Positions 1 to 33,059 of a stretch of DNA of 64,000 nt are shown here, piece by piece. Each line of letters begins with the position of its first letter. The stretch's first letter is position 1. Both the position numbers and the translations under genes were made by a program. Below the pieces are notes generated by a model. It was not told the origin of the DNA and made no database searches. It was given only the letters and a program-made list of their open reading frames with translations. The stretch is from Deltaproteobacteria bacterium (GTDB taxonomy: Bacteria > Myxococcota_A > UBA9042 > PHBI01), in NCBI GenBank assembly GCA_020632715.1, contig JACKFA010000004.1, forward strand, positions 758,190 through 822,189, given 5' to 3'.

Positions 1-2899
1 GGGGCGCCTCCCACGCGTCCGGCGTCAGGCGCGACCCGTCGGCGAGGGGGGCCGCGCCCGGCGGCCAGGGCGTTGGCGGGTCGGCGAGCGCCGGGAGCGC
101 GCGGAACACCCAGCCCACGCCCTCGAAGAGCACGCCGACCGGGAGCCAGCCGAAGAGGTCCGCGCGGGCGGCGTCGTCGTCGGTCACGCGCGCGAGCTGG
201 CAGCCGTCGCCGACGTCGACGAGCTCCGCGGCCGCGACCTCGCGATCGCCCAGGCGCACGCGGGCGGCGCGCCAGCCGGTGGCCGCGGGGACGCAGATGG
301 ACACGGCGTGAGGCGCCCGCGTGACCGCGACGAGGCGCGCGGCGAACGCCTCGTCGAGGGCGCCCGTCGCGGGGGCGGTGACCTCGTGCAGGTGGACGGC
401 GCCGATCTTCGCCGGGCGCGGCGACATGTCGAGGCGGCTCGAGTAGCTCGCGGCGAGCGCGACGAACCGGAGCTCGGGGGCCTCCTGCGTGAGCACGAGG
501 AAGCGGTCGTCGGCGACCTGGAGCGCGCCGACGGCGATGTGCCCGGCCGGCAGGGCGAGGCGCCCGCGCAGCTCCGGGAAGACGCCCGTGTCCTCGACCC
601 GGAGCGCCGTGAGCTCGCCGGCCTGCCCCACCGCGGCGAAGCGGTACGCGCCGTCCTCGTGGGCGCGCGACACGCCGAACGCGGGGAACGCGACGCGGTC
701 GCGGACGGTGCCGTCGTCGGCGATCCAGGCGATCTCCGCGGGCTGGTCGCGCACGTAGCGGCTCAGGGACACGAGGGCGACGCCGTCCGGGAGGGTCGCG
801 GCCGCGATCATCGCGGTGTAACGGACGCCGAAGACGTCGTCCGTCGCGACCGGCACCCCGGGCACGGGCGCCGCCACGAACCCGGTCGGGAGCGACGTGT
901 CCGGCGTCTTCTCGCCGTCCCAGTCGGCGATCCACGAGCCGGCGACGGCGGTGACGAGGCTCAGGAAGCGCCCATCCCGCCACCACGAGGCGTACGCCGT
1001 GCCGCCGAGCAGCCGCTCGCCGCTCGCGCCGGGGGTCGCCTCCCGCACCTCGTTGACCCGCACCGTGTCGATGGGCGTCCAGCGCGTGCCGTCGGGGTGC
1101 ACGTAGGTGTCGAGGTGCGCGGGCGACTCGCGGCGGGTGCAGAGCTCCGGCGGGAAGGGCGTCGCGGACGGCGTCCCGTCCGGCTCGAGGTACGCGCACG
1201 CCGCGGCGAGCACGGTCTGGTTCACGGCGAGCGTCTCGCCGTTCGGCCCGAGGATCCCGTTCCGTCCGGTGCTGCGCCCGCGGACGAGGAGGTCGGTCAG
1301 CGCGTCGCCCTGGGACGACGTCACCGACCAGACGCGCTCCGGCGCGATGTCCTCGACGAGCGGGCCGTCTCCGAGCTCGGTCAGCGCGAGGTCCGGGGCC
1401 TCCTGGGGGACGGCGCCGAGGACGCCCGCGTCGGTGAGGTCGGGCGGCGCCGGGAAGCCGAGGTGCGCGAGGGTCACGGGGCGGCCGTCGGGGTCGACGA
1501 GCTCGGGGTCCTCGGCGGCGAACGGGGCGAGCTCGGGCTCCTGCGGGTCGTTGGGCGCGGGACCGTAGGAGAGCAGCGTGTCGAGGGCGTAGAGCCAGGG
1601 CTGGCCGGCGACCGGGCCGTGCCCTTCGAGGAAGTCGATGGCGCCGCGGATCCGGTAGATCTCGTCCGCCGGAGAGCGCGTCGTCGTGTGATTGCGGGGC
1701 ACCGGGACCGGCGGCCCGACCCACTCGACGCGCCACAGCACGCGCTCGCCGTAGACGGTCGCGACCGGCTGGCGCTGCGTCACCGTGAAGCGCCAGGTGT
1801 CCGCGGGATCCCAGCGCACGGCGCCGTCGGCGGCGCCGCCGTTGCCGAACGCGAAGACGCTGCCGCGCTCGAGCTGCCGGTTGGCCGTCCAGCTCATGCC
1901 GAGGCGCACCTCGCGCGGCACGAGCAGGATCGGCGGGTCGATGGGCCCGGCGTGGTCCTCGGCGAGGTAGACGTCGCCGTCGTCCGTCGCGATGACGCCC
2001 ACCCCGCCGCTGTCCGTGGCGTCGAACGAGCGGTCGAAGCGGTGGAGCACGCCGCGCGCGACGCGCCGCGCGCTGTGGGCGCTGGTGAGGTCCGGGAGGA
2101 GGCGGTTCAGGAGGTGCGCCTCGTCGAAGGCGATGGTCCGGCGGAAGGTCGGGCGGATCCCCTCGCCGAGGGGCCAGAGCGGGAGCGCGCTGGGCTCGCC
2201 GACGCCCGCGAAGAGCTGCCCCGCGACGGGCCCGGCCGCGCCTGCGTCCCCGTCGCCGCACCCGGCGAGGACGGCGGCCGCTGCGGCCGCCGCGAGCAGC
2301 GCCTCGCGGACGCGCGCCCGGCGCCGTCGCGCGCCGAGCCACCCGAGGGCGAGCAAGGCGGGGACGAGGCCCGCGCCCCCCGCGCCGCCGGACGCGCCGC
2401 AGCCGTCGTCGGCCGCGAGCGACGACGCCCTCCAGCCGCTCGGCGGGCTCGTCGAGACGCGCCCGGTCTCGCGCCAGGTCTGCTCGCCGCAGGTGATGAC
2501 GAGCGGCACGCGCTCGCCGGCGAGGTGCTCGATGACGAGCCAGGTGTGGAGCGCGCCGTACGCGAACGCGCTCGGGCCGGGGCGCCCGCGGGCGTCACGG
2601 TGGAGGCGCGGGTAGGCGTCGAAGCTCTCGTCGAGACGCGAGAGCGACACGGGGCCGGGGGTCTCGATGGTCGCGGTGACTCGCGGCGGCGGGGCGCCCG
2701 GGTCGTCGGCGACGCAGGTGGCGCGCACCTCGAGCACCCACGGGAAGCTGAGGATGGCGTCGGGATGGCCGCCCGTGTCGGGGTCGTGGTTCGGCGGCTG
2801 CGGGGTCTCGACGGTGAGCGTCTCGGCGCGGCTCGCGGGCGCAGCCCCGAGAACCAGGGCGGCCAGCGCGAGCGCGGCGAGGCCGGCAGGGCGGATCAT
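1..2899 (-). CDS. Secreted protein, 3' end beyond the window. ATG at 2899 gives the signal peptide MIRPAGLAALALAALVLGAAPASRA|ETL. At ~170-200 aa there is a MYXO-CTERM-like tail (DDGCGASGGAGGAGLVPALLALGWLGARRRR). It runs in-frame, with no stop, into a lipoprotein-type signal (ARVREALLAAAAAAAVLAGC) and a large globular region. Possibly two genes fused.
   Basis: I translated the minus strand by hand. The reading frame is open from 2899 to the window edge. The composition is protein-like (W/F/Y/H/K/N present). The plus-strand track ORF 308..4390 is the mirror frame. This ORF is absent from the track because it leaves the window. My hand reverse-complementation may contain errors. Confidence 0.5.
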   Translation of the reverse strand, partial: MIRPAGLAALALAALVLGAAPASRAETLTVETPQPPNHDPDTGGHPDAILSFPWVLEVRATCVADDPGAPPPRVTATIETPGPVSLSRLDESFDAYPRLHRDARGRPGPSAFAYGALHTWLVIEHLAGERVPLVITCGEQTWRETGRVSTSPPSGWRASSLAADDGCGASGGAGGAGLVPALLALGWLGARRRRARVREALLAAAAAAAVLAGCGDGDAGAAGPVAGQLFAGVGEPSALPLWPLGEGIRPTFRRTIAFDEAHLLNRLLPDLTSAHSARRVARGVLHRFDRSFDATDSGGVGVIATDDGDVYLAEDHAGPIDPPILLVPREVRLGMSWTANRQLERGSVFAFGNGGAADGAVRWDPADTWRFTVTQRQPVATVYGERVLWRVEWVGPPVPVPRNHTTTRSPADEIYRIRGAIDFLEGHGPVAGQPWLYALDTLLSYGPAPNDPQEPELAPFAAEDPELVDPDGRPVTLAHLGFPAPPDLTDAGVLGAVPQEAPDLALTELGDGPLVEDIAPERVWSVTSSQGDALTDLLVRGRSTGRNGILGPNGETLAVNQTVLAAACAYLEPDGTPSATPFPPELCTRRESPAHLDTYVHPDGTRWTPIDTVRVNEVREATPGASGERLLGGTAYASWWRDGRFLSLVTAVAGSWIADWDGEKTPDTSLPTGFVAAPVPGVPVATDDVFGVRYTAMIAAATLPDGVALVSLSRYVRDQPAEIAWIADDGTVRDRVAFPAFGVSRAHEDGAYRFAAVGQAGELTALRVEDTGVFPELRGRLALPAGHIAVGALQVADDRFLVLTQEAPELRFVALAASYSSRLDMSPRPAKIGAVHLHEVTAPATGALDEAFAARLVAVTRAPHAVSICVPAATGWRAARVRLGDREVAAAELVDVGDGCQLARVTDDDAARADLFGWLPVGVLFEGVGWVFRALPALADPPTPWPPGAAPLADGSRLTPDAWEAP

Positions 2900-3097
2900 C
2901 GTTCGCTCTCGGGGGTCTCGGTCACGGGATGGGCGGTGGTCACCCCGAGAGTAACGAAACAATCGCGGCATTTCGAATGGCGCGGGCACGAAACGAGAAA
3001 GCGGGCGCGCCGAGGGTTGACAGCCGGGGCGCGCTGCGGCATTCGACGAGTCCTGATATTGCGACCTATTGGTCATTGTATTTTCCGGGAGATCGTC

Positions 3098-4390
3098 ATG
3101 ACCCGTGTCCCCGTGTGCCTCGTCGCGCTGCTCACCCTCGCGCTCGCCGCGCCCGCCGCCGCGGCCGAGCCGGACGACGTCACCCTCGACGCGGCGGCGT
3201 GCGAGGGGCGGCCGCGCGTCCTCGTCCAGCACAACCGTCACTGGTCGGTCCTGTTCGGCGAGGTGAAGACGCCAGCGGAGCAGGCCGGGCTCCTCGCGTG
3301 CGCGAAGCCCGGGACGCGGGCGCGACACGACTGGGCGATCCCGGTGACGCTCGCGTTCCTCACGCGGTCGGACTACACCGGGCACGATCCCCTCGACGCG
3401 GCGCTCGGCGTCAACGCCTACCTGCGCCTGATCGCGCTGCGGCCCGACGCCGACAATCACGGGGCCAACGCCTGGTTCGCGGGGCTCGTGGCCGGCTACG
3501 AGCGCGTCGTCCCCGCCGCCGAGATGAAGGCGGCGCTCCGGGAGGCGCTCGACGCCGACGTCGCGGAGAAGCTCGCGGCGGGCGTGGACCTCGGCCTCGC
3601 GACCGCGCGGGAGGTCGCCCCCGAGGCGCCGGTGTGGCGGGAGTGGGAGGCCTACGCGGCCGAGCTCGCCGGCGTGAACCCGCTCCTCCGGGAGCTGCGG
3701 GCCGAGCTGCGCGATGGCGACGCCGCGTTGGCGCTGGCGCGGCTGGACGAGGCGCGGGCGAAGCTGCTGGCGGAGGCGAAGGACAAGGACGCGGCGGTGA
3801 AGTCGCCGGCCTTTCGCGAGCTGAGCGGCCTGGCGCGGGCCTTCGCGGCGGCGCGCGGCGTCCGACGCCCGTTCGAGCAGGCGCTCCCCGAGCCGCTCTT
3901 CCCGACCACGGCCCACGCGCGACCGCTCGAGTACCGGCTCCGCGAGCGGCCCGACTGGGCGCTCGACGGGTGGCAGCTCGGGCGCGACGCGGCGCGCGAG
4001 GGCGAGTGGAGGGCCAAGGACCCCGTGCTGGGCGGCGGCGCGAGCTACACGCTGCCGGTGAAGAAGGTCGAGGCGCGCGAGGACGGCACGACCCGGCTGA
4101 CCCTCGGCAACCGCGAGACGCTCTCCTACGCGGGGCAGTGCCGGACGGCGCTCGTCTTCATCGACGCGGCCGGGCAGGGCTGGGGAACCGACCGCTGCAC
4201 GGGCGACAGCGCCGTCCGGACCGAGGCGGGACCGGCGTCGGCGACGGTCCCGAGCGCGCAGCTCGCGGCGGCGAAGAAGGGCACCGTCGTCGAGCTGGTG
4301 GCGATCCCCGACGGCTCCGAGGCCTACCCGGTGCGGGTGTGGGACCGGCGGCTGAAGCGGGTCCTGGCGATCGGGCCGTTCGCGCTGTAG
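3098..4390 (+). CDS. Secreted hypothetical protein, 430 aa, with a Sec signal peptide (MTRVPVCLVALLTLALAAPAAAA).
   Basis: This is the 3' portion of track ORF 308..4390. The composition turns from R/G/E junk to protein-like at this ATG. Stop is TAG at 4388-4390. Confidence 0.7.
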   Translation: MTRVPVCLVALLTLALAAPAAAAEPDDVTLDAAACEGRPRVLVQHNRHWSVLFGEVKTPAEQAGLLACAKPGTRARHDWAIPVTLAFLTRSDYTGHDPLDAALGVNAYLRLIALRPDADNHGANAWFAGLVAGYERVVPAAEMKAALREALDADVAEKLAAGVDLGLATAREVAPEAPVWREWEAYAAELAGVNPLLRELRAELRDGDAALALARLDEARAKLLAEAKDKDAAVKSPAFRELSGLARAFAAARGVRRPFEQALPEPLFPTTAHARPLEYRLRERPDWALDGWQLGRDAAREGEWRAKDPVLGGGASYTLPVKKVEAREDGTTRLTLGNRETLSYAGQCRTALVFIDAAGQGWGTDRCTGDSAVRTEAGPASATVPSAQLAAAKKGTVVELVAIPDGSEAYPVRVWDRRLKRVLAIGPFAL

Positions 4391-20351: not shown

Positions 20352-20546
20352 GATTCTCAGACCCCCGGAGAGCCGCCTCTCCAGCGGCTCAATTGAACGA
20401 GCGCTCGGAAAAATCCGGATACACCCTTGCCAATCTCGGCAGCGCCGTGCAGGGTCGAAAAAGCCGAGGCGGAATCGGACATTGCGGAGTCCGTTCGCGC
20501 GCCGCGGCAACCCCCGACAACTCATCGAGACGCACGCGAGGCTCTC

Positions 20547-23500
20547 ATGCACGCGCTGAAGTCGCTCGCGTTGGCCGCCGTCACGGCGCTGGCGCTGCTC
20601 TCCTTCACCGACGTCGCGTCGGCCCAGACCGACGTGAACGTCGTGGTCCCCGACGCGCTCACGGCCAACGTCCAGTTCGGCCTCGACGTGACCTACAGCC
20701 TCGACGGCGGCGTCTACGAGGATCTGCTCCTGACCGTGCAGATCCCCTCCGGCTTCCGCTTCGTCCAGGCGACCTACCAGGACGGCACCTTCCCGAACTA
20801 CACGTGCCCCGGGAACATCACCGACGGCTACACGTGCACCTTCGGGAACGCCACGCTCGACGCCGGCGGCGGCATCGCGGGCGCCATGACCATCACCCTC
20901 GTCCCGGCGCGCTACTACCACCGCGACCAGGACACGGTGAGCGCCACGGCCTCGCTCCAGGCCACGTCCTACACGACGCCGACCGGGGCGTCGTCGACCA
21001 TCGGCATCGGCCCCGTCTCGGACGACGGCGTCGTCACCGTCCCGTTCAGCGTGCGCTGGCAGGACTACACGCGGCGCGGCGGCTACTTCACGACCAACCC
21101 GCTGACCGGCGAGGTCGGCGAGAGCTACCTCCTCGACTACCGCATCAACAACAACGGCGCCGCGAAGATCGTCGGCGGCTCCCAGATCGTCGCCACGATG
21201 GGCCCGAGCCTCGTCTTCGTCGAGGCCTACCCCGGCAACAACAACACCGACCCGACCCTGAACGCGGCCTACGTCATCGACGACGGCGGGATGACCCCGT
21301 GGCAGGACAGCGGCGGCACGGTGTCGCTGACGATGGTGAACGCGATCTGGCACTCGAACGGCGTGTCCGAGAGCTACTCCCCCCACCTCTACGTGCGCGT
21401 GTGGGTGCCGTGCAGCGCGATGCCCGTGGGCGCCACCAACGAGGACTTCTTCGGGACCGCCGTCTACCACGCGAGCTACGAGACGACCGGCCCGACCGCG
21501 GCCTCCTACACCCTCGCCTCGAACGGCAACCTGCCGCCGCCGGCCGCCTCGCTCAGCAACCAGTGCGGCAGCGGCGGCGTCTTCAGCAAGCAGGGCATCG
21601 GCGGTCAGGGCGTCGAGACCAACGTCGGCTGGCGCCTCAACGCGAGCCCCGCGTTCGGCGTGTTCCCCTACGACGAGGTCCTCTTCCAGGACCGGATCCC
21701 CGCCGGCACGAGCCTCATCTCGGCGTCGCTCTCGTTCACGCCGAGCGAGTTCACCCGCTACAGCTGCCAGCTCCCGGCGGGCGTCACCGACCCCATCTCC
21801 GTCGCCGACTTCCACGACTACGTCACCGACGGTGCCTGCGTCCCGGCGTTCGACCCGGACGCCACGCACATCATGTTCTACGCGCCGCAGTGGGGCGACG
21901 CGGCCGACGGGATCACCGCCTTCCGCGCCGACTTCTACACCTACGTCCCCGCGGGCTACGTCCCGCCCGGCGCCGTCGAGCCCTTCCCCATCCAGAACAC
22001 CGCCTACATGGACGCCGACAAGCCGGCCTCGAGCGGTGGGGCCCACGTGAGCGCGAGCTACACCGCGGCGCGCGACCTCTACACGACGAGCCGCCCCCAG
22101 TCGTGGCGCTGGGACGCGCAGACCACGAGCCCGGCCGTCGTCATCGCCGGCGAGGAGGCGTCCGTCGGGTTCGGGCTCTACCGTCACTCGCAGTTCCGCC
22201 CCGCGCGGAACCCGCGTATCAGCGTCACCGTGCCGGACGGCGTCACGATCCTATCGGCGCAGATCTCCTTCCTCACGACCGGCGGGTGCGCGGACGACCC
22301 GCCGCCGACCACGTGGACCGAGCCCGTCCTCGGCTCGAACCCGCTCGTGTGGCAGCTCGGCGACGACGACGAGCCCTACGACATGGTCGACACGGGCAAC
22401 GTCTGCACGCGCGTGAAGCTCACCTGGGTCGCGAGCGAGTCCTACGGCTTCGTCAACGGCGACACCGTGCAGTTCCGCGAGGTCGTCTCCGCCGACAACG
22501 CCGGGACCTACACCCACGCCACGTCTTACAACTTCACCATCCGGCGGCCGGCCGAGATGAAGGTCGGCGTGGAGCCGGGTTGCTACGACAACAAGGCGCC
22601 CGCCTTCGTCATCACGGCGTCGAACACCGGCGGCACCGACCTCGAGGACGTCGTCGTCGAGACGGCCATCCCGGGCACCGCCGACGGCGTGTCGACGGCC
22701 GAGTCGACCTTCGCCGGGCTCGGGCTCACGCCGCCCGACGCGACCTTCGAGTACCTCGTCGCGGGGAGCTGGGTCGCGACGTACGCGACGGCGGCCGACG
22801 TCGAGGCCGTGCGGATGCACGTCGCCGGCATCCCGACCGGCGGCGACCCCGTGCAGTTCGAGGTGCGCCTCTCGACCGACAGCCCGACGGGCACGACGCT
22901 GCACGCGCGCGCCGTCATGAGCGAGTCGAACCTGCCCGGCGCGGACAGCGCCTTCACGCAGGCGGTCGGCGTGTGCCCCGGCACGGTCGACGTCACGAAG
23001 TTCTTCGACGCCGACGGCGACGGCGCGCAGGGGGCGGGCGAGGTGAACCTCGGCGGCTGGACGTTCGACGTCTACGACGACGGCGGGGCGCGGATCCGCA
23101 GCGTCGTGACCGGGAGCGACGGCTCCGTGCGGGTGCTCCTGAACCCCGGCGACTACACGTTCACCGAGGTCGTGCCGACCGACACGCAGGGCGTGTGGGC
23201 GGCGACGACGGCGGGCGGCGAGTCGCAGACGGTCACGGTCGTGGACCTCGGCGAGCACGCGCTCCTCTTCGGCAACACCTGCGCCTGCCCGGACGACAAC
23301 GACGGCGACCCGTGCACGGAGCTCGCCTGCCAGCCGAACGGGACGTGCCTCTCGGTCGGGACCGAGGCCGGGACGACCTGCGACGACGGCTCCGAGTGCA
23401 CCGACAACGACGTCTGCGACGGCATGAAGGGCTGCTCGGGGCTCGCGGTCAGCTGCGACGACCACGACGAGTGCACGGCCGACAGCTGCGACCCCGCGAG

Positions 23501-26162
23501 CGGCTGCGCGAACGAGCCGCTGACCGGCACGGCGTGCACCTTCGACGCGTGCACGGAGAACGCCGTGTGCACCGCCGGCGAGTGCGGCGGCGGCGTGCCG
23601 ATCGACTGCGACGACGGCAACGAGTGCACCCTCGACACGTGCGACCCGGCGCTCGGCTGCCAGCACGCGCCGACGAACGAGGGCGGCGAGTGCAGCGACG
23701 GCGTCGACTGCACGGTAGGTGACGCGTGCCAGGCCGGCGCGTGCGTGCCGGGGAGCGGGCCCTACGACTGCCTCGCGGGCACCGACTACGACGCCGACTG
23801 TGTGAGCGCGGCGTGCGGCCCCGAGGGCTGCGAGATCGCCACGATCAACGAGGGCGGGGCGTGCGACGACGGCGACGCCTGCACGGTCGCGACGACGTGC
23901 GAGGCCGGCCACTGCGTGGGCGGCGCGGCGAACACCTGCGACGACGGCAACCCGTGCACGGGGACGACCTGCGACAGCGCCACGGGCTGCGCCTACGAGC
24001 CGGTCGCCGGGAGCTGCGACGACGACGATCCGTGCACCGAGGGCGACACGTGCGACGACGCCGGGCACTGCGTGAGCGGGACGCCCATGAGCTGCGACGA
24101 CGGCATCGCCTGCACGAGCGACCGGTGCGAGGGTGGCGAGTGCGTGTCGACGCCGATCGAGGACGGGGAGCCCTGTCAGGACGGGGACGCCTGCTCGGGC
24201 ACGGCGAGCGCGCCCGACACGTGCCAGGGCGGCGTGTGCGTCGCGGGCGCGGCGGTCGACTGCGACGACGGCAACGTCTGCACGACGAATACGTGCGACA
24301 GCGAGCTCGGCTGCCAGACGGCGAACAACGACGGCGCGACGTGCAGCGACATGAACGCGTGCACCGACGGTGACGCGTGCCAGGGCGGCGCGTGCGTGCC
24401 GGGGCCGGCGCGCGACTGCGACGACCACAACGCCTGCACGGACGACAGCTGCGACGCGGCGCTCGGCTGTGTCACGGTGAACAACGAGGCGCCGTGCGAG
24501 GACGGCGACGCCTGCACGGTCGACGACGCGTGCTCGAACGGGGCGTGCGCGCCGGGGGCGGCGCCCGACTGCGGCGACGACAACCCCTGCACGGACGACA
24601 GCTGCGACAGCGAGCTCGGCTGCCGGAACGTGCCGAACACGGCGCCCTGCACGGACGGGGACGTCTGCACGCTCGACGACGCGTGCGCCGACGGGGCCTG
24701 CGTCCCCGGGGCGGTCGACGACTGCGACGACGGCGACGTCTGCACGAGCGACAGCTGCGTCGCGGGCGTCGGGTGCGACCACCAGCCGCTCGGCGGGTCG
24801 CAGCTCGCGACGGCCTGGTTCTTCGTGTTGAACGACGGGAGCGGGACGATCGTGGCGGTCACGGACGACCCGGCGCCGCCGGCGACCGCGCCCGAGGGCT
24901 ACTACACGCGCTACGCGGTGTCCTACCTGCCGGCGGACGCGGGCGACCCGATGGCCGGGCTCCCGGGGGTCGGCGACCCGGCGTCGGCGCTGAGCGAGCT
25001 CGCGCCGACGAGCTGCGCGACGGTGAACGGGGAGCTCATCCTGGTCGACTACCCGGTCGAGTGCGATCCGACGGGGGTGAGCTCGCTCTCGCTCGAGCCG
25101 CTGAACGTGCACTGGAACCTGTTCTCGTGTGGCGACGTCGACGGCTTCACGGACGCGCGCGGCATCGTGGCGGCGGCGGGCGACCTCTTCGTCGAGCAGT
25201 GGGGGAACCCGGCGAGCGCGACGATCGGCGAGCACGTGGAGCCGCTCGCGCCGGGCGAGTCGGTGTACGACCTCTGGGACCTGCCGGCGCGGCAGGGGAA
25301 GAAGACGCAGGACTACCAGCAGCAGAACGCCGGGGAGCCGATCGACGTGCTCTACCTGGGCGGCGTGATGGAGGCGCTCGGCGGCGACATCTTCGGGTCG
25401 GTGGTGACGGTCGGGCCCACGGGGGCGGCGATCGCCGGGGTGACTGGGAACCTGACGCTCCGCGAGGGCGGCGAGTGGCTCGTCGGGAACCCGCTCGACT
25501 TCGCGGGGACGTGCCAGGACTTCCGCGAGCTGTCGCAGTACTTCAAGGGGATCACGGCGCCCGCTCAGCAGGACGTGATCGTGCACAGCTGGGGCGGGCT
25601 CACGTTCCCCGCGCCGCCGGCGGGCGCGATCACGTGCCCGGCGGGGGCCGGCGACCCCGATCCGCTCTGGGTCTACCGGGTGGACCTGACCGCGATGGCG
25701 CCGAACGTGGGGCCGTACGTGAACCAGGGGTCGCTGCCGCTGCCGGCGTGCCTGCGGCCGGTGACGCTGGCCGACGGGAGCACGATCCAGACGCCGTCGA
25801 CGACGCTCATCGTGAACTGGGTGGGCGCGGCGAGCGCGACGCTCCAGTACACGGACATGAACCACAAGTTCCCGTACTGGAAGACGCTCTGGAACTTCCC
25901 GGACACGTCGACGCTGCACCTGACGGGCGTCGCGGCGGAGGCGAGCATCTTCGCGCCGTTCGCGGACGTGACGCTGACGCAGATGGAGGTCTGGGGCTTC
26001 GTCGTGGCGGGGCGCGTGACGGAGGTCGGCAACGTGGGGCTCCGGCTGCCCGGCTACCACGCGCGCATCAACGTCGAGGCGACGTGCGAGTACGACGAGC
26101 CCGCGGGCGCCACGGCGCTCCCGGGGGACACCGGCGAGACGCCGGTCGAGACCTATCCCTGA
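20547..26162 (+). CDS. Giant secreted surface protein (~1870 aa). Contains DUF11-like repeat domain(s), an SdrD-B/Cna-B-like fold, ~13 tandem myxobacterial Cys-rich disulfide repeats, and an uncharacterised C-terminal domain.
   Basis: Start at internal Met with signal peptide MHALKSLALAAVTALALLSFTDVASA. Repeats of the form CxDGNxCTxDxCDxxxGC. DADGDGAQGAGEVNLGGWTF...GDYTFTE matches the SdrD B-like fold. Confidence 0.85.
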   Translation: MHALKSLALAAVTALALLSFTDVASAQTDVNVVVPDALTANVQFGLDVTYSLDGGVYEDLLLTVQIPSGFRFVQATYQDGTFPNYTCPGNITDGYTCTFGNATLDAGGGIAGAMTITLVPARYYHRDQDTVSATASLQATSYTTPTGASSTIGIGPVSDDGVVTVPFSVRWQDYTRRGGYFTTNPLTGEVGESYLLDYRINNNGAAKIVGGSQIVATMGPSLVFVEAYPGNNNTDPTLNAAYVIDDGGMTPWQDSGGTVSLTMVNAIWHSNGVSESYSPHLYVRVWVPCSAMPVGATNEDFFGTAVYHASYETTGPTAASYTLASNGNLPPPAASLSNQCGSGGVFSKQGIGGQGVETNVGWRLNASPAFGVFPYDEVLFQDRIPAGTSLISASLSFTPSEFTRYSCQLPAGVTDPISVADFHDYVTDGACVPAFDPDATHIMFYAPQWGDAADGITAFRADFYTYVPAGYVPPGAVEPFPIQNTAYMDADKPASSGGAHVSASYTAARDLYTTSRPQSWRWDAQTTSPAVVIAGEEASVGFGLYRHSQFRPARNPRISVTVPDGVTILSAQISFLTTGGCADDPPPTTWTEPVLGSNPLVWQLGDDDEPYDMVDTGNVCTRVKLTWVASESYGFVNGDTVQFREVVSADNAGTYTHATSYNFTIRRPAEMKVGVEPGCYDNKAPAFVITASNTGGTDLEDVVVETAIPGTADGVSTAESTFAGLGLTPPDATFEYLVAGSWVATYATAADVEAVRMHVAGIPTGGDPVQFEVRLSTDSPTGTTLHARAVMSESNLPGADSAFTQAVGVCPGTVDVTKFFDADGDGAQGAGEVNLGGWTFDVYDDGGARIRSVVTGSDGSVRVLLNPGDYTFTEVVPTDTQGVWAATTAGGESQTVTVVDLGEHALLFGNTCACPDDNDGDPCTELACQPNGTCLSVGTEAGTTCDDGSECTDNDVCDGMKGCSGLAVSCDDHDECTADSCDPASGCANEPLTGTACTFDACTENAVCTAGECGGGVPIDCDDGNECTLDTCDPALGCQHAPTNEGGECSDGVDCTVGDACQAGACVPGSGPYDCLAGTDYDADCVSAACGPEGCEIATINEGGACDDGDACTVATTCEAGHCVGGAANTCDDGNPCTGTTCDSATGCAYEPVAGSCDDDDPCTEGDTCDDAGHCVSGTPMSCDDGIACTSDRCEGGECVSTPIEDGEPCQDGDACSGTASAPDTCQGGVCVAGAAVDCDDGNVCTTNTCDSELGCQTANNDGATCSDMNACTDGDACQGGACVPGPARDCDDHNACTDDSCDAALGCVTVNNEAPCEDGDACTVDDACSNGACAPGAAPDCGDDNPCTDDSCDSELGCRNVPNTAPCTDGDVCTLDDACADGACVPGAVDDCDDGDVCTSDSCVAGVGCDHQPLGGSQLATAWFFVLNDGSGTIVAVTDDPAPPATAPEGYYTRYAVSYLPADAGDPMAGLPGVGDPASALSELAPTSCATVNGELILVDYPVECDPTGVSSLSLEPLNVHWNLFSCGDVDGFTDARGIVAAAGDLFVEQWGNPASATIGEHVEPLAPGESVYDLWDLPARQGKKTQDYQQQNAGEPIDVLYLGGVMEALGGDIFGSVVTVGPTGAAIAGVTGNLTLREGGEWLVGNPLDFAGTCQDFRELSQYFKGITAPAQQDVIVHSWGGLTFPAPPAGAITCPAGAGDPDPLWVYRVDLTAMAPNVGPYVNQGSLPLPACLRPVTLADGSTIQTPSTTLIVNWVGAASATLQYTDMNHKFPYWKTLWNFPDTSTLHLTGVAAEASIFAPFADVTLTQMEVWGFVVAGRVTEVGNVGLRLPGYHARINVEATCEYDEPAGATALPGDTGETPVETYP

Positions 26163-26223
26163 CCGTCGCGGCGCGCCGCCGGACGGGCGGGGGCGCCGTG
26201 CCTCGCGAGAGAGGAGACGAACC

Positions 26224-26841
26224 ATGCGCATGAGGAAGCTCGCCGTCGCGGCGGTGGTGATGGGGCTCGGGCTCGGGGCGTGCCAGGGCGGGGAGGTGCC
26301 GCCGGTCGGCTCGCAGACGCCGACGGACCCGACGACGCCGACGGAGCCGACGACGCCGACGGAGCCGACGACGCCGACGGAGCCGACGACGCCGACGGAG
26401 CCGACGACGCCGACGGACCCGACGACGCCGGTGGACCAGCGGAGCGAGGAGGCGAAGGCGCTGCACGGGCTCACGCGCTCGGTGCTCGTGGCGTGGGCGC
26501 GCGAGGATCTGCGCGAGATCCTCGCGCTGTCGTCGAAGGACGCGGAGGACCACGTGGCGGACCTGCTCGCGAGCCCGGAGGCGCGCGCGTTCTACTTCGG
26601 CGAGGACGGCTTCCGGGCGCGCGCGGTGCGCGCGTGGCAGGCGCAGGGTGAGACGCTCGGCACGGTGCGGGGCGAGGGCACGCCGGGCGGCGCTGAGCTC
26701 GCGCGGCGCTGGGTCTTCGTCACGGTGCTCGACGGGAAGCCCGTCGTGGCCGACCTCCTCTGGGAGGTGGACCGCTGGATCTTCGTGAATCTGCTCGAGG
26801 TCGACGACGCGCGTTTCGACGCGTTCGGGACCGAGATCTAG
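26224..26841 (+). CDS. Lipoprotein with (TPTEPT)n Pro/Thr linker and a C-terminal globular domain.
   Basis: MRMRKLAVAAVVMGLGLGAC lipobox. Six 18-nt tandem repeats. GGAGA RBS. Confidence 0.7.
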   Translation: MRMRKLAVAAVVMGLGLGACQGGEVPPVGSQTPTDPTTPTEPTTPTEPTTPTEPTTPTEPTTPTDPTTPVDQRSEEAKALHGLTRSVLVAWAREDLREILALSSKDAEDHVADLLASPEARAFYFGEDGFRARAVRAWQAQGETLGTVRGEGTPGGAELARRWVFVTVLDGKPVVADLLWEVDRWIFVNLLEVDDARFDAFGTEI

Positions 26842-26939
26842 TCGCAGCGACCTCGCGGGCTCGGCCCGCGTGGCCGCCCGCGTCGCAGGGTCGGCCCGTC
26901 GTGGCCGCGTCGTAGGGGCGGCCCTCGTGGCCGCCCGCG

Positions 26940-27344
26940 TCAGCCCACCACGTTCCGCGCGACCATCCACGCGAGCAGCGCGACCAGCAGCGTCGGCGCC
27001 CGCAGGCGCGGCGGGAGCGGCGTCGGCACGCGGAGGCTCGCCCAGCGGCCGGTCGCCGCGTAGCGGGCGAGCGTCACGACCGCCCACAGCATGAGCGGCG
27101 TCGCCAGCACCGTCAGCGGGTTCGCGGCCCAGGCCGCGGCGACGTCGCCGTGGAGGAGCGCGTGCAGGGCGCGCAGCGTGCCGCAGCCGGGGCACAGGAG
27201 CCCCGTCGCCGCGCGCACCGGGCACGGCGGGTAGGTGCCGGGCGTGGCCGGGTCGTGCCCCGCGAGGAAGGCGCCGAGCGCGCCGAGCGCGACGAGCGTC
27301 GCCGCCGCGAGGGCGCGCCGGGGCGCGGCGTCAGCGACCCGCAA
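26940..27344 (-). CDS. DUF2752 family small membrane protein.
   Basis: CPVRAATGLLCPGCGTLRALHALLHGD motif (CPxCGxxRA) plus TM helices. Confidence 0.7.
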   Translation of the reverse strand: MRVADAAPRRALAAATLVALGALGAFLAGHDPATPGTYPPCPVRAATGLLCPGCGTLRALHALLHGDVAAAWAANPLTVLATPLMLWAVVTLARYAATGRWASLRVPTPLPPRLRAPTLLVALLAWMVARNVVG

Positions 27345-27738
27345 GGCTCAGGCCGAGGACGACGATGCCGAGGACCACCCCGACGGCGAGGGACGCGACC
27401 GACCAGTTGTTCGCGCTCTGGGCGGCCTCGCGCGCCGCCTCGGGGTTGCCGGCGTACCAGTGGCCTGCGACCTGGCTCGCCTTCACGATGGCGACGACGC
27501 CGAACGGGAAGAAGCAGAAGAGGGTCGTGAGGATGGCCCAGGCCATGCCGGAGTCGGGCATGGGCTCGCGCGGCGTGGGCGGCGTGTCGCGGAGATAGGG
27601 CGGGACGGGCTCTGCGCGCTGTGGGGGAGCGTCGCGCTCGGCGAGGATCCGCGCCTTCTCGCGCTGGAACTCCTCCTCCGAGAGGACGCCGCTCGCGCGC
27701 AGCTTGCCGAGCTGCTCGAGGCGATCGAGGTGCGACAC
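27331..27738 (-). CDS. SHOCT-domain protein with a C-terminal CD225/dispanin (IFITM-like) two-TM domain.
   Basis: N-terminal LDRLEQLGKLRASGVLSEEEFQREKARILAE matches SHOCT. C-terminal MAWAILTTLFCFFPFGVVAIVKASQV resembles the CD225 signature. Confidence 0.65.
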   Translation of the reverse strand: MSHLDRLEQLGKLRASGVLSEEEFQREKARILAERDAPPQRAEPVPPYLRDTPPTPREPMPDSGMAWAILTTLFCFFPFGVVAIVKASQVAGHWYAGNPEAAREAAQSANNWSVASLAVGVVLGIVVLGLSLAGR

Positions 27739-27742
27739 GCGG

Positions 27743-28066
27743 TCAGAGCCCCTGGAGGATGCGGGCGCGCTGCTCGGCGTACTCGCCGTCGGTCAGCGTG
27801 CCGGAGTCGCGGAGGCGCGAGAGCTGGGCGAGGCGGTCCTCGATGGCGGCGGCGCCCTCCGCGGGTGGCATGCTCATCGCCGGGCGCTGGGACGGCGCGG
27901 CGGCCTGCCCCCCGTGGCCGGGCGCCGGCTCGAGCACGGCGATGATGATGATGCCGATGAGGCCGAGGAGGAGGCCGAGGACGGCGCCGAGGCCGCCGCG
28001 ACCCTTGCCTTCGCCGATCGCGTAGCCGATGACGCCGCAGACCACCATGACGATGAGCCAGACCAT
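27743..28066 (-). CDS. GlsB/YeaQ/YmgE-like glycine-zipper membrane protein with a C-terminal SHOCT domain.
   Basis: MVWLIVMVVCGVIGYAIGEGKGRGGLGAVLGLLLGLIGIIIIAVL and IEDRLAQLSRLRDSGTLTDGEYAEQRARILQGL. Confidence 0.6.
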   Translation of the reverse strand: MVWLIVMVVCGVIGYAIGEGKGRGGLGAVLGLLLGLIGIIIIAVLEPAPGHGGQAAAPSQRPAMSMPPAEGAAAIEDRLAQLSRLRDSGTLTDGEYAEQRARILQGL

Positions 28067-28182
28067 GAGAGCGCCCTTTGCGCCGCTCTGGGCGCGTGCC
28101 GGAGGGAGAATGTGGAGAGCGGCTCGAGGCTAGCCCACGATGGGGAAGGCCTCAAGGGCGCTCCGGGGTCACCGTCCAGAAA

Positions 28183-29508
28183 TCAGGCGGCCTGGCGTCG
28201 CCGGTCGCCGCCCTCCATCGCGCGCGCCCAGCGGGCCGCGCCGCGCTGCACGTCGTCGACCGTGACGTCGAGGGAGCCGAGGCGCTCGCGGGCGTCCTCG
28301 GCGAGCTCGGAGAGCTCCGTCAGGAGGCGCGCGAACTGCGCGCCGTGCGGGAGCTGCGCCGCGAGGGCCTTGCCGGTGACGTGGCTCAGCTGGATCGTGA
28401 GGAGGATGCGCCCGAGCGCGTCGAGGACGCCGCGGAAGACGTCGAGCGAGGCGCGCAGCTGCGCGAGGGACACGGCGCTCTCATGGCGCGCGTGGCCGCT
28501 CGCGGCGCCGAGGACGCGCGAGAGGTCGTCGAGCGTGCCGCCGTAGCGGGCGATCTGCTCGTCCCGGTCGAGGTCGTGGCCGCGTCGCCCGGCGGCGAAG
28601 GCGGCGATCTGCGCGTCGTAGAGGCGCGCCCGCGCCATGTTGACGGTGGCCTGCGTCGCGGCGGCCCGGAGGCGCCCGCTCTCCTGGCCGACCCGGCGCG
28701 ACTCGGCGCTGATGTGGGTGGCGACGCGCGACACCTCGTGGCTGATGGTCGCGAGGGCGCGCGCCTCGGGGTCGGCGCCCAGCCGCGCGGCGGCGACGGC
28801 CGCGTTGCTCGCCATGTGGCTCACGCTCGCGCCGAGCGAGCGCAGGAGCTCCTCGCGGGCGTCGAGCTGGGCGATGAGCTCGTCGAGGCGCTCGAGGCCG
28901 GCGGTGGCGGCCGCGGCGGCGCGGCGTCGCGGGGGCCCGTCGCCGTCCGCGGCGGCGCTCGCGAGGGCGGCGTCGCGGGCGGCGAGCTCGTCGCGGAGGG
29001 CGCGGTCGGCGAAGGCGTCGTAGGAGTCGAAGCCGAGGGAGGCGACGGCGGCGTGGAGGCGCTCGTAGGAGGCGCGCATGCCGGCGCGCCAGTCGTCGCC
29101 GTAGCTCTGCTCCTGCTCGAGGAGGTCGCGATAGAGCGAGACCACGGCGTGGAAGCGGGGCGACGTCGGCTTGAGGCGGACCGAGAGGAAGCCGCCGTCG
29201 TGGGGGGTGACCACGGCGAAGACCCAGTAGTGGGCGCCGTCCTTGGCGCGGTTCTTCACGTAGGCGCCGACGGCGCGGCCCGCGAGGAGGCGCTCCCAGA
29301 GGAGGAAGAAGACGCTCCGCGGCATGTGTGGGTGGCGGATGACGTTGTGCGGCGCCCCGAGGAGCTCGTCGCTCGCGTAGCCGGCGACGCGCAGGAAGAC
29401 CTCGTTGCAGCTCGTGATGACGCCCTTCTTGTCGGTGGTCGAGAAGAAGAGCTCCGAGACGTCGAAGGGCGCTTCGCGGTCGCGGACGGGTTGGGGGCGG
29501 ATCGCCAT
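28183..29508 (-). CDS. Soluble Aer-like PAS-domain protein with a degenerate methyl-accepting chemotaxis (MCP) signalling domain.
   Basis: PAS motifs ITSCNEVFLRVAGY and NVIRHPHMP. C-terminal helical region resembles the MCP signalling domain. Start at internal Met (MAIRPQPV); the 89 upstream codons are R/G/P-rich. Confidence 0.7.
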   Translation of the reverse strand: MAIRPQPVRDREAPFDVSELFFSTTDKKGVITSCNEVFLRVAGYASDELLGAPHNVIRHPHMPRSVFFLLWERLLAGRAVGAYVKNRAKDGAHYWVFAVVTPHDGGFLSVRLKPTSPRFHAVVSLYRDLLEQEQSYGDDWRAGMRASYERLHAAVASLGFDSYDAFADRALRDELAARDAALASAAADGDGPPRRRAAAAATAGLERLDELIAQLDAREELLRSLGASVSHMASNAAVAAARLGADPEARALATISHEVSRVATHISAESRRVGQESGRLRAAATQATVNMARARLYDAQIAAFAAGRRGHDLDRDEQIARYGGTLDDLSRVLGAASGHARHESAVSLAQLRASLDVFRGVLDALGRILLTIQLSHVTGKALAAQLPHGAQFARLLTELSELAEDARERLGSLDVTVDDVQRGAARWARAMEGGDRRRQAA

Positions 29509-31565: not shown

Positions 31566-33059
31566 TCACAGCGAGTAGACGGCGACCTGCTGCTCGCGCC
31601 CCTTGACGGCCTGCGCCCCGTGGGGGGTGGCGCGGGCGCGGAGCTCGGCGGGGAGCGCGTCGTGGACGTCCTGGCTCACGAGGATGTCGGTGGCGAGGGC
31701 GGTGTTCATCGCCTCGAGCCTGGCGGCGAGGTTCACGGTGTCGCCGAGGACGGCGTACTTCAGGCGCACGCGGCTCCCGAGGCTGCCGGCGACGACGGCG
31801 CCCGTGTGGACGCCGATGCGCGCCGAGAGGCGCGGGACGCCGCGGGCCTGCCAGAGCTCGGCGGTGCCGTCGCCCTCCCAGGCGTCGTTCAGGGCGTCGA
31901 GGCGGGCGCGCATGGCGAGGGCGCAGCGGGTGGCGCGCTCGGCGTGGTCGGGGAGGGCGTCGGGGGCGCCGAAGACGACGAGGATCCCGTCGCCCAGGAA
32001 CTCGATGACGCAGCCGCCGTGGGCGTCGATGACGTCGTTCATCGCCTCGAGGTATTGGTTCATCAGCGCCAGGATCTGCGGCGGCTCGAGGTGCTCGCTG
32101 AGGCGCGTGTAGCCGCGCAGATCGGAGATCAGCACGGTGACGCGCCGCTCCTCGCCGGCGAGCCCGCCGCCGGTGCGGTTCGCGAGGAGCTTCCGGGCGA
32201 CGTCCTCCGAGACGTAGCGGCCGAACGTGGCGCGGATGAAGTCGCGCTCCTCGAGGCCGGCGGCCATGGCGTCGAAGTGGCGCCCGAGGACGCCGAGCTC
32301 GTCGTCGCGGTCGATGGCGACGCGGGCGGTGAGGTCGCCGGCGGCGATGGCCTCGGTGCCGGAGACGATGCGCGCCATGGGGCGGCGGAGGAGGCGGGCG
32401 ACGCCGAGGGAGGCGAGGACGAGGAGGGCGAGGGCGCCGGCGTAGGTCGCGGCGGCGACGCCGAGGAGGCGGGCCTTCATGCGGTCGACGCGGGCGGCGT
32501 CGACGTCGACGCCGAGGAGGGCGCGGGCGGGGCCGCCGCCGCTCGGGCGGATGGGGGCGAAGCCGCTGATGGAGACGCCCCAGGCGTCGGGGACGGGGTC
32601 GTGGTCGACGGCGGGGTGGTCGAAGCCGGCGATCATGTTGTCGTAGCGGGTGGCGTCGTAGAGGTCGCCGAAGGCGGCGGGGGCGGCGCGGACGTCGGTG
32701 TCGACGAGGAAGCGGAGGCGCCTCGGGTCGGGGGTGCGGGCGAAGACGTAGATGCTGGCGAGCTCGGGCTCGCGCTCGATGATGGCGGTGAAGCGGCGGA
32801 CGAGCTCGACGCGGTAGGGGTCGTCGGCGGCGTCGATGGCGGCGAGGCGGTCGGCGTCGACGAGGCCGGCGAGGGAGACGGCGGTCAGGCGGAGGCGGCT
32901 CCAGAGGTTCGCGAGCTCGGCGTCGACGGCGAGGTGGTAGACGAAGACGGCGGCCGGCGTCAGGACGAGGAGGAGCGCGAGGCCGTAGACGGCGGTGAGG
33001 CGCACGTGGATGCGCTGCCAGAGGCGGAGACCGGCGAGGGTCGAAGTCGTGCGGCTCAC
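31566..33059 (-). CDS. Class III adenylate/guanylate cyclase with N-terminal TM, periplasmic sensor region, second TM and HAMP-like segment.
   Basis: Cyclase motifs RVTVLISDLRGYT and FLGDGILVVFGAP. Confidence 0.85.
   Translation of the reverse strand: MSRTTSTLAGLRLWQRIHVRLTAVYGLALLLVLTPAAVFVYHLAVDAELANLWSRLRLTAVSLAGLVDADRLAAIDAADDPYRVELVRRFTAIIEREPELASIYVFARTPDPRRLRFLVDTDVRAAPAAFGDLYDATRYDNMIAGFDHPAVDHDPVPDAWGVSISGFAPIRPSGGGPARALLGVDVDAARVDRMKARLLGVAAATYAGALALLVLASLGVARLLRRPMARIVSGTEAIAAGDLTARVAIDRDDELGVLGRHFDAMAAGLEERDFIRATFGRYVSEDVARKLLANRTGGGLAGEERRVTVLISDLRGYTRLSEHLEPPQILALMNQYLEAMNDVIDAHGGCVIEFLGDGILVVFGAPDALPDHAERATRCALAMRARLDALNDAWEGDGTAELWQARGVPRLSARIGVHTGAVVAGSLGSRVRLKYAVLGDTVNLAARLEAMNTALATDILVSQDVHDALPAELRARATPHGAQAVKGREQQVAVYSL

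Follow-up and report, generated by a model that had tools for sequence, protein, structure and literature searches.

What a bacterial relative of the eukaryotic dispanins does, and with which proteins it works, is the question raised by three small membrane-protein genes on the minus strand of a 64,000-nucleotide (nt) stretch of Deltaproteobacteria bacterium DNA (contig JACKFA010000004.1, positions 758,190 to 822,189; hereafter the window). CD225 proteins, or dispanins, are important for antiviral immunity, for the function of synapses, and for trafficking, and are thought to be bacterial in origin. In the window a CD225 gene (gene 2) lies between a gene for a two-helix membrane hairpin (gene 1) and a gene of the DUF2752 family (gene 3), and the products of genes 1 and 2 each carry a SHOCT domain. 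The answer developed here is that the three genes are one operon and that their products on balance probably form a hetero-oligomeric inner-membrane complex, a lineage-specific SHOCT form of a widespread CD225-DUF2752 module.

The pairing of CD225 with DUF2752 genes in other genomes carries this answer. A scan with a DUF2752 alignment, limited to one genome per species, gave a DUF2752-fetched set made up of the best 80 of 557 confirmed loci. These were mostly from Acidobacteriota; the others came from Chloroflexota/Dehalococcoidia, Actinomycetota, Planctomycetota, Verrucomicrobiota, one cyanobacterium, Desulfobacteraceae, Binatus, and a 'Deltaproteobacteria' metagenome-assembled genome (MAG). 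Pairs were counted from frame-specific matches to hidden Markov models (HMMs), which replaced crude greedy gene calling, a procedure that mis-framed many genes in high-GC DNA. Single-linkage clustering of neighbouring open reading frames (ORFs) was abandoned as it merged unrelated ORFs. In 77 of 82 DUF2752-fetched loci the gene immediately 5' of DUF2752, on its strand, encoded CD225. The median interval between the stop of CD225 and the closest start of DUF2752 was 8 nt; 84% of the pairs fell within -20 to +30 nt, and ATGA-type overlaps were the commonest single class of junction. All 80 partner proteins scanned with Pfam contained CD225. In the CD225-fetched set (80 metagenome loci found by CD225 peptide patterns, 73 assessable), DUF2752 was directly downstream in 58 loci (79%) and elsewhere in the locus in four, with the qualification that both scans rest on conserved peptide patterns and that the CD225 patterns were derived from DUF2752-linked sequences. 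Three out of three CD225 proteins chosen by CD225 similarity alone (P0008, P0006, and P0004) had DUF2752 next; the apparent exception, P0004, had a DUF2752 start that the gene caller missed. Altogether, CD225 followed by DUF2752 is a conserved, translationally coupled gene pair across many phyla, Cyanobacteria and Myxococcota-like MAGs included.

Some frames on long-read metagenome contigs were frameshifted or fused between CD225 and DUF2752, or had miscalled DUF2752 starts: L083 4347-4782, L072 3479-4344, P0277 (L173), and P0278 (L172). The CD225 gene that appears 'solo' there, like the 'fusion' proteins, probably reflects errors in sequencing or annotation. The natural fusions P0277 and P0278 were not counted, being singletons with fragmented neighbours or an out-of-frame-looking linker, and P0175, a fusion by its length, was rejected as a GYF_2+CD225 protein with an acidic tail. 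An actinobacterial-type CD225 (P0004, L083) had a miscalled DUF2752 gene directly after it.

Gene order in relatives was one of the points on which the initial annotation had said that its proposal could fall. The CD225-DUF2752 core recurred across phyla, as described above, far more widely than anticipated, and all three genes, in unchanged order and 1-6 nt apart, were found in four loci of the close clade (L001-L004), where the DUF2752 proteins were 52-68% identical to gene 3. The flanks of these loci were unrelated: alcohol dehydrogenase, methylmalonyl-CoA mutase, and MeaB in L001; an Hsp70-like gene and a caspase-like peptidase in L002; and a thioesterase in L004. Two near-identical contigs from other samples, L180 and L181, had the same gene arrangement as the window, so it is not an assembly artefact. 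With 0-11 differences they are essentially the same strain, which makes the ratio of non-synonymous to synonymous substitution rates (dN/dS) from them uninformative. The three-gene order, seen with unrelated flanks in L001-L004 and again in L180 and L181, is far beyond chance. More distant SHOCT+CD225 proteins (38-43% identity) were also followed by DUF2752 and had no gene 1 homologue 5' of them.

Within the window the ORF list placed the three genes consecutively on the minus strand with tight spacing, as first annotated, and the claim of gaps or overlaps of no more than 14 nt was exact (Table 1): a 4-nt gap (TGA ccgc GTG) separates genes 1 and 2, and genes 2 and 3 overlap by 14 nt. The TTG at 27344 is the sole in-frame start of gene 3 that retains its first transmembrane (TM) helix and Cys41. 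The window has a guanine plus cytosine (G+C) content of ~75%, and the G+C fractions at the first, second, and third codon positions of all three ORFs (0.76/0.51/0.96, 0.73/0.51/0.93, and 0.79/0.64/0.99) followed GC1>GC2<<GC3, the pattern of real genes. The intergenic region 5' of gene 1 was identical in L181; a sigma-70-type consensus was looked for in its 116 nt and not found. At the other end, an RNA fold of 26842-26945 gave -66.4 kcal/mol (z = -2.5), the next gene lies on the opposite strand, and the spacer between them is likely the end of the operon. The three genes form one operon.

Table 1. Coordinates, in the window, of the three-gene operon, its domains and motifs, and the adjoining features (aa, amino acids).
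Feature	Position	Strand	Description
Gene 1	27743..28066	-	107 aa, ATG start; two-TM hairpin + C-terminal SHOCT
SHOCT of gene 1	27755..27838	-	aa 77-104; Pfam PF09851
Gene 2	27331..27738	-	135 aa, GTG start; SHOCT + CD225 (dispanin)
SHOCT of gene 2	27643..27726	-	aa 5-32; Pfam PF09851
CD225 of gene 2	27361..27561	-	aa 60-126; Pfam PF04505
Gene 3	26940..27344	-	134 aa, TTG start; DUF2752
Cys motif of DUF2752	27180..27224	-	C41-P-x8-C51-P-G-C54-G; continues T-L-R-A
Intergenic region 5' of gene 1	28067..28182	-	116 nt; presumed promoter and 5' leader of the operon
Convergent spacer 3' of gene 3	26842..26939	-	98 nt; GC-rich hairpins
PAS-protein gene	28183-29508	-	116 nt upstream of gene 1, same strand

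The domain architecture first proposed for gene 2, an N-terminal SHOCT followed by a two-TM CD225 domain, was confirmed by Pfam at 38.1 bits for SHOCT (cut-off 27) and 68.3 bits for CD225 (cut-off 27.1), the latter covering profile positions 1-67 of 68. Hydrophobic segments span aa 63-88 and 111-135, the second being a TM helix. The first holds Cys75-x-x-Pro78-x-Gly80, and the loop that follows contains G97-N98 and then A102-x6-A109. A cysteine at the Cys75 position was present in 83 of 85 linked sequences, and Pro78, Gly80, Gly97, Ala102, and Ala109 were near-invariant among the 85; the residue after Gly97, Asn in the window, was Asp in 73 and Asn in seven of the 85 relatives. An exhaustive search with gene 2 returned ~3,200 CD225-like cluster representatives, and ~19 of the top 150 aligned full-length including the SHOCT.

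A bacterial CD225 profile built from 80 linked proteins, the window's among them, matched PRRT1 (PDB 9zks_M) with E=3.4e-22. In an AlphaFold model of a CD225 homologue (a fusion chain, distinct from the window protein) the first segment was predicted as helix-break-helix, with the break at CC-L-P, in agreement with the re-entrant M1a/M1b of PRRT1, whose Cys-bearing apex points toward the bilayer centre. In the PRRT1 structure (PDB 9zks) partner proteins are bound through their TM helices by the CD225 domain, and more generally CD225 in eukaryotic dispanins is an intramembrane module that binds other membrane proteins. Gene 2 has a domain homologous to that of IFITM1-3, PRRT1/SynDIG4, PRRT2, and TUSC5, and has in common with them a first segment predicted to be re-entrant, with Cys where it kinks, a cytosolic loop with G-(D/N), Asn in the window, the motif A-x6-A, and a second TM helix. 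It differs in being bacterial, in having an N-terminal SHOCT in place of a Pro-rich or endocytic-signal N-terminus, in having one Cys and not two, and in sharing an operon with DUF2752. There is no known S-palmitoylation machinery for it, and any antiviral or trafficking role would be conjectural.

Bacterial dispanins have been known since 2012, when the G-D and A-x6-A loop motifs were described and no neighbourhood analysis was made (PMC3282796). The mycobacterial 'IFITM' homologues (Melvin et al., 2015; PMC4488726) are likewise bacterial CD225 proteins, whose di-cysteine motif lies further into the first hydrophobic domain than that of IFITM3; that study used human cells only and had no gene-neighbourhood analysis. 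DUF2752, PF10825, and IPR021215 had no mention in the literature searched, and an association of SHOCT with CD225 is not mentioned in PMC3581485 or PMC11237479. The CD225-DUF2752 partnership thus appears undescribed, although genome-context databases may show the adjacency implicitly. All of the domain families involved are already Pfam entries; what is new is the SHOCT-adapted operon with its unique third protein.

Gene 3 matched DUF2752 (PF10825) at 69 bits (cut-off 27) and contains CPGCGTLRA, in accord with the CPGCGxxRA motif noted initially. C41, C51, P52, G53, C54, G55, N75, and R130-N131 were invariant in 104 DUF2752 homologues, and H61 was ~90% conserved. An AlphaFold2 model (predicted local distance difference test [pLDDT] 88.8; predicted template modelling score [pTM] 0.74) had long helices at aa 6-29, 76-98, and 112-133 and short helices around the Cys motif (aa 30-75). 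One of the modelled helices starts at residue 52 and thus has the CxxC as its N-terminal cap. The positive-inside rule, applied across the family, points to a cytoplasmic N-terminus and 99-111 loop and would place the Cys region at the outer face. No solved relative of DUF2752 was found among PDB sequences.

The product of gene 1 opens with a glycine-zipper hairpin of two helices (aa 1-46), the loop of which carries a conserved 'GKGR'; a linker rich in Pro and Ala then leads to the C-terminal SHOCT that had been assigned to it. This SHOCT was borderline in Pfam (27.8 bits, cut-off 27). The call is backed by the scores of the orthologues (26.3, 20.2, and 27.2 bits), by a match of 63.6 bits to a custom clade-specific SHOCT HMM, and by the motif R-L-x2-L-x2-L-R-x2-G-x5-E-Y-x3-R, invariant across five gene 1 orthologues. 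In L001-L004 the orthologues keep hairpin and SHOCT and vary in linker length; Cys10 is not conserved among orthologues. The likeness of gene 1 to GlsB/YeaQ, which the initial annotation had proposed, had to be given up: Transgly_assoc (PF04226) did not match the full protein at E<=1, nor the hairpin alone or three full-length orthologues at E<=10, and alignment of the hairpin to DUF4190, CD225, and TM2 profiles with hhalign revealed no similarity (probabilities <3%). A custom HMM of the hairpin matched only in the window's clade among ~160 loci; by this measure gene 1 is specific to that clade.

A second hairpin gene is common across the larger set. Layouts in 82 loci were as follows: CD225-DUF2752 (33, including L001-L004, whose gene 1-type gene escapes these HMMs), DUF4190-CD225-DUF2752 (26), the same with a further downstream DUF4190 (nine), CD225-CD225-DUF2752 (four), and a few others. 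Each of the four operons inspected on this point had a matched cytoplasmic module on both hairpin proteins: zinc ribbon with zinc ribbon (Acidobacteriota L006 and L016), GYF_2 with GYF_2 (L029), DUF2510 with DUF2510 (L087), and SHOCT with SHOCT (the window). Among 80 linked CD225 proteins the N-terminal module was a zinc ribbon in 62 and SHOCT in five, and the SHOCT of gene 2 occupies the position that the zinc ribbon has in most of them, so the adaptor in the window is a rare variant within a common module. The zinc-ribbon pairs (Acidobacteriota, Chloroflexota, Actinomycetota, and others; often with a zinc-ribbon-DUF4190 gene first) have the same tightly coupled core and the same matched-module logic. 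The window's clade differs from them in having SHOCT for the zinc ribbon and, as its second hairpin, the unique glycine-zipper+SHOCT protein, unrelated to DUF4190, CD225, or TM2. Window and published SHOCT proteins alike have this short bihelical domain at membrane-protein termini, where it is predicted to be intracellular and to help in building membrane complexes (Eberhardt, 2013; Ravi et al., 2024); in the window it occurs on consecutive gene products, C-terminal in one and N-terminal in the other.

Other hairpins take the place of CD225 in some loci: GYF_2+DUF4190 on both sides of DUF2752 (L029, a Verrucomicrobiota MAG), TM2 on both sides (L090, Streptomyces cadmiisoli), and DUF4234 adjoining DUF2752 (L179, Paenibacillus), all three without CD225. 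L087 likewise had a TM2 partner. Each alternative partner had an intramembrane Cys ('TCGG' in TM2, 'VCC' in DUF4190, and 'TCGI' in DUF4234).

The DUF4190 proteins beside the pair in three Acidobacteriota/Binatus loci (L006 2795-3556, L016 2497-3555, and L009 4140-4985) have an N-terminal zinc ribbon and, after the hairpin, a C-terminal region of ~130 aa that opens 'IPN(L/V)LRARMAANE' and bears a tentative likeness to the N-terminal helix of type IV pilins or pseudopilins.

In the complex favoured here, the CD225 and DUF2752 products, with that of gene 1, would form one hetero-oligomeric assembly in the inner membrane, held at a fixed ratio by translational coupling. The re-entrant first segment of CD225 would enter from the cytoplasmic side, as in the PRRT1 fold, bringing the Cys-x-x-Pro-x-Gly kink near the bilayer centre. 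DUF2752, with its N-terminus in the cytoplasm, three TM helices, and the three-cysteine motif toward the periplasmic leaflet, would be the intramembrane partner of CD225. It would probably contact the Cys-bearing kink by way of a shared metal site or thiol chemistry, to which the near-invariant cysteines of each core partner point. At the cytoplasmic membrane face would lie the two SHOCT domains, those of genes 1 and 2, which may draw the gene 1 hairpin into the complex or anchor the two proteins to a common ligand or leaflet. Joining of gene 1 through a matched SHOCT would agree with the prediction that SHOCT-like domains are intracellular and assemble membrane-associated complexes (PMC11237479). 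The likeliest role for such a complex would be a chromosomal and constitutive one, in organising the membrane or in the envelope; that it serves phage defence or chemotaxis is unlikely.

Several points weigh against this complex. Physical interaction of CD225 with DUF2752 is something that we infer. The only two natural fusions of the families are probably artefacts of error-prone contigs, and a single-chain AlphaFold model of such a (probably artefactual) fusion, made with an unpaired alignment, reached a pTM of 0.58. As the DUF2752 Cys motif would by the positive-inside rule face the periplasm and the CD225 Cys kink would come from the cytoplasmic side, contact between them is not guaranteed. 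The second CD225 cysteine, present in 79 of 85 relatives, is replaced in the window, which has Cys-Phe and so one Cys; and in the cyanobacterial DUF2752 of L022 (3863-4384) Ser replaces the first Cys ('YPPSPF') while CPGCG is kept, so that the first Cys may be dispensable in some DUF2752 lineages. DUF2752 was absent from 11 of the 73 assessable CD225-fetched loci, and DUF2752 genes without an obvious hairpin partner occurred in L043, L091, and L178. The motif-scan loci were dominated by Acidobacteriota, and the counts are not phylogenetically independent. Finally, the one published assay of SHOCT self-oligomerisation did not support it (PMC3581485).

In one of these loci, L043 (a Pirellulales MAG), the DUF2752 gene (2571-3110, minus strand) has no same-strand hairpin partner and a divergent upstream gene for a DUF4870 membrane protein (123.7 bits).

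The alternative that survives best turns the partnership into one of enzyme and substrate. DUF2752 would sit in the membrane as an enzyme, or a factor for cofactor insertion, that depends on its cysteines and acts on the intramembrane Cys of CD225, DUF4190, TM2, and DUF4234 hairpins by S-acylation, disulfide or thioether formation, or metal loading. The palmitoylation by zDHHC enzymes that eukaryotic dispanins require would then have its counterpart in bacteria. We regard this as possible and rather unlikely. It draws on the same near-invariant cysteines in both partners, on the intramembrane Cys found in every alternative partner family seen, and on the CxxC, which in the model heads a helix in the way known from thiol-disulfide oxidoreductases and zinc knuckles. 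The bacterial CC motif was left unexplained in PMC3282796, and the motif is palmitoylated in eukaryotic cells (PMC4488726). DsbB, VKOR, and the zDHHC palmitoyltransferases offer an analogy only: they too are polytopic, with essential cysteines that act on partner cysteines and a CxxC at a helix N-terminus. No sequence or fold similarity of DUF2752 to any of the three was detected, and DUF2752 has three TM helices where they have four or more, three conserved cysteines, and no DHHC motif. Somewhat less probable again is the wider proposal that DUF2752 is an unrecognised family of membrane-embedded Cys-directed enzymes or cofactor partners for the cysteines of dispanins, DUF4190, TM2, and DUF4234, working for instance by S-acylation, by thiol-disulfide exchange, or through a shared metal site, and the antecedent of Cys modification in eukaryotic IFITM and PRRT proteins. 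If true, it would explain the conservation of CC in bacteria that have no known S-palmitoylation.

It is doubtful that the three products are general stress membrane proteins without a specific complex, small and hydrophobic and induced by stress on the envelope or by osmotic stress, like GlsB/YeaQ/YmgE or like SHOCT proteins associated with the phage-shock protein (PSP) response. The glycine-zipper hairpin of gene 1 fits this picture, as does the recurrence of SHOCT-like domains in PSP-type envelope-stress neighbourhoods (PMC11237479). However, neither gene 1 nor three full-length orthologues resembled Transgly_assoc, PSP components were found in none of the neighbourhoods examined, and so tight and conserved a gene pairing points to a specific partnership.

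The initial annotation had suggested a membrane stress or immunity-like module, and an IFITM-like module that blocks phage entry or membrane fusion, in defence or superinfection exclusion, is suggested by the homology of gene 2 to the antiviral IFITM/CD225 family and by the restriction of influenza virus by mycobacterial homologues in human cells (PMC4488726). The genomic evidence went the other way and leaves this very unlikely. PADLOC-DB gave zero families at E<=1 for the three proteins and the neighbouring PAS protein, and no DUF2752 relative was present in 2.9 million viral contigs. Matches by tblastn were sparse: three weak ones in a phage collection, all on unannotated faecal 'phage' contigs, and six in a plasmid collection, all on large non-mobilisable replicons. 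PHROGs gave only weak SHOCT or TM matches. Flanks in other phyla were housekeeping genes, namely FUR, penicillin amidase, phosphorylase, an SLH protein, a pyridoxal-phosphate (PLP) enzyme, a MobA-like gene, and MTHFR; they differed between lineages and were stable within Acidobacteriaceae. Neither a defence island nor a mobile element is suggested by this context.

Least credible of all is that the module is an accessory or output of the adjoining Aer-type PAS protein in redox or aerotaxis signalling, for although that gene lies 116 nt upstream on the same strand, and does so too in the near-identical strain contig L181, it was not next to the module in L001, L002, L174, L175, or the 80 genome loci, an intergenic gap separates it from the operon, and its product has no detectable MCP domain. 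Of the Aer-like PAS/MCP neighbour first described, the Aer-type PAS domain stood (PDB 8dik_A, E=1.4e-24; PAS_3, 35.8 bits) and the MCP part did not, with no Pfam match to the MCP signalling domain (PF00015) at E<=10 in the C-terminal 272 aa and a match to full-length Aer (31cj) confined to the PAS domain. Its membership of the module was likewise set aside. The PAS protein is soluble, and after the PAS domain has ~310 aa of predicted helical sequence without a Pfam family; a 441-aa gene-caller product in L181 supports a start at 29508 and not the 530-aa ORF from 29775.

For the window, these results temper the idea of an immunity module and detach the operon from the PAS sensor. Beyond it, the CD225-DUF2752 pair gives a testable handle on ancestral dispanin function, with a defined protein set, specific cysteines, and a structurally unsolved family, and a first functional context for DUF2752, DUF4190, DUF4234, and bacterial TM2.

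Three neighbouring genes of the window complete the description. Convergent to the operon, 26224-26841 on the plus strand encodes a putative lipoprotein of 205 aa with the lipobox L-G-A-C and, after the signal peptide, a (PTEPTT)n-like Pro/Thr tandem repeat; it had no significant Pfam or NCBIfam family. On the same strand, 20427-26162 encodes a secreted protein of 1911 aa in which Cys-rich 'C..DGN.CT.D.CD' repeats form long runs and which has a choice-of-anchor A domain (TIGR04215, 58.7 bits) at its C-terminus; the antisense ORF 22251-26474 looks spurious, as is common in high-GC antisense frames. On the minus strand, 31566-32636 encodes 356 aa with HAMP-like similarity (to the BaeS/MCP linker region) and with similarity to TOMM kinase/cyclase and LipJ in their nucleotide cyclase portion, and its product is probably a membrane HAMP-cyclase signalling protein.

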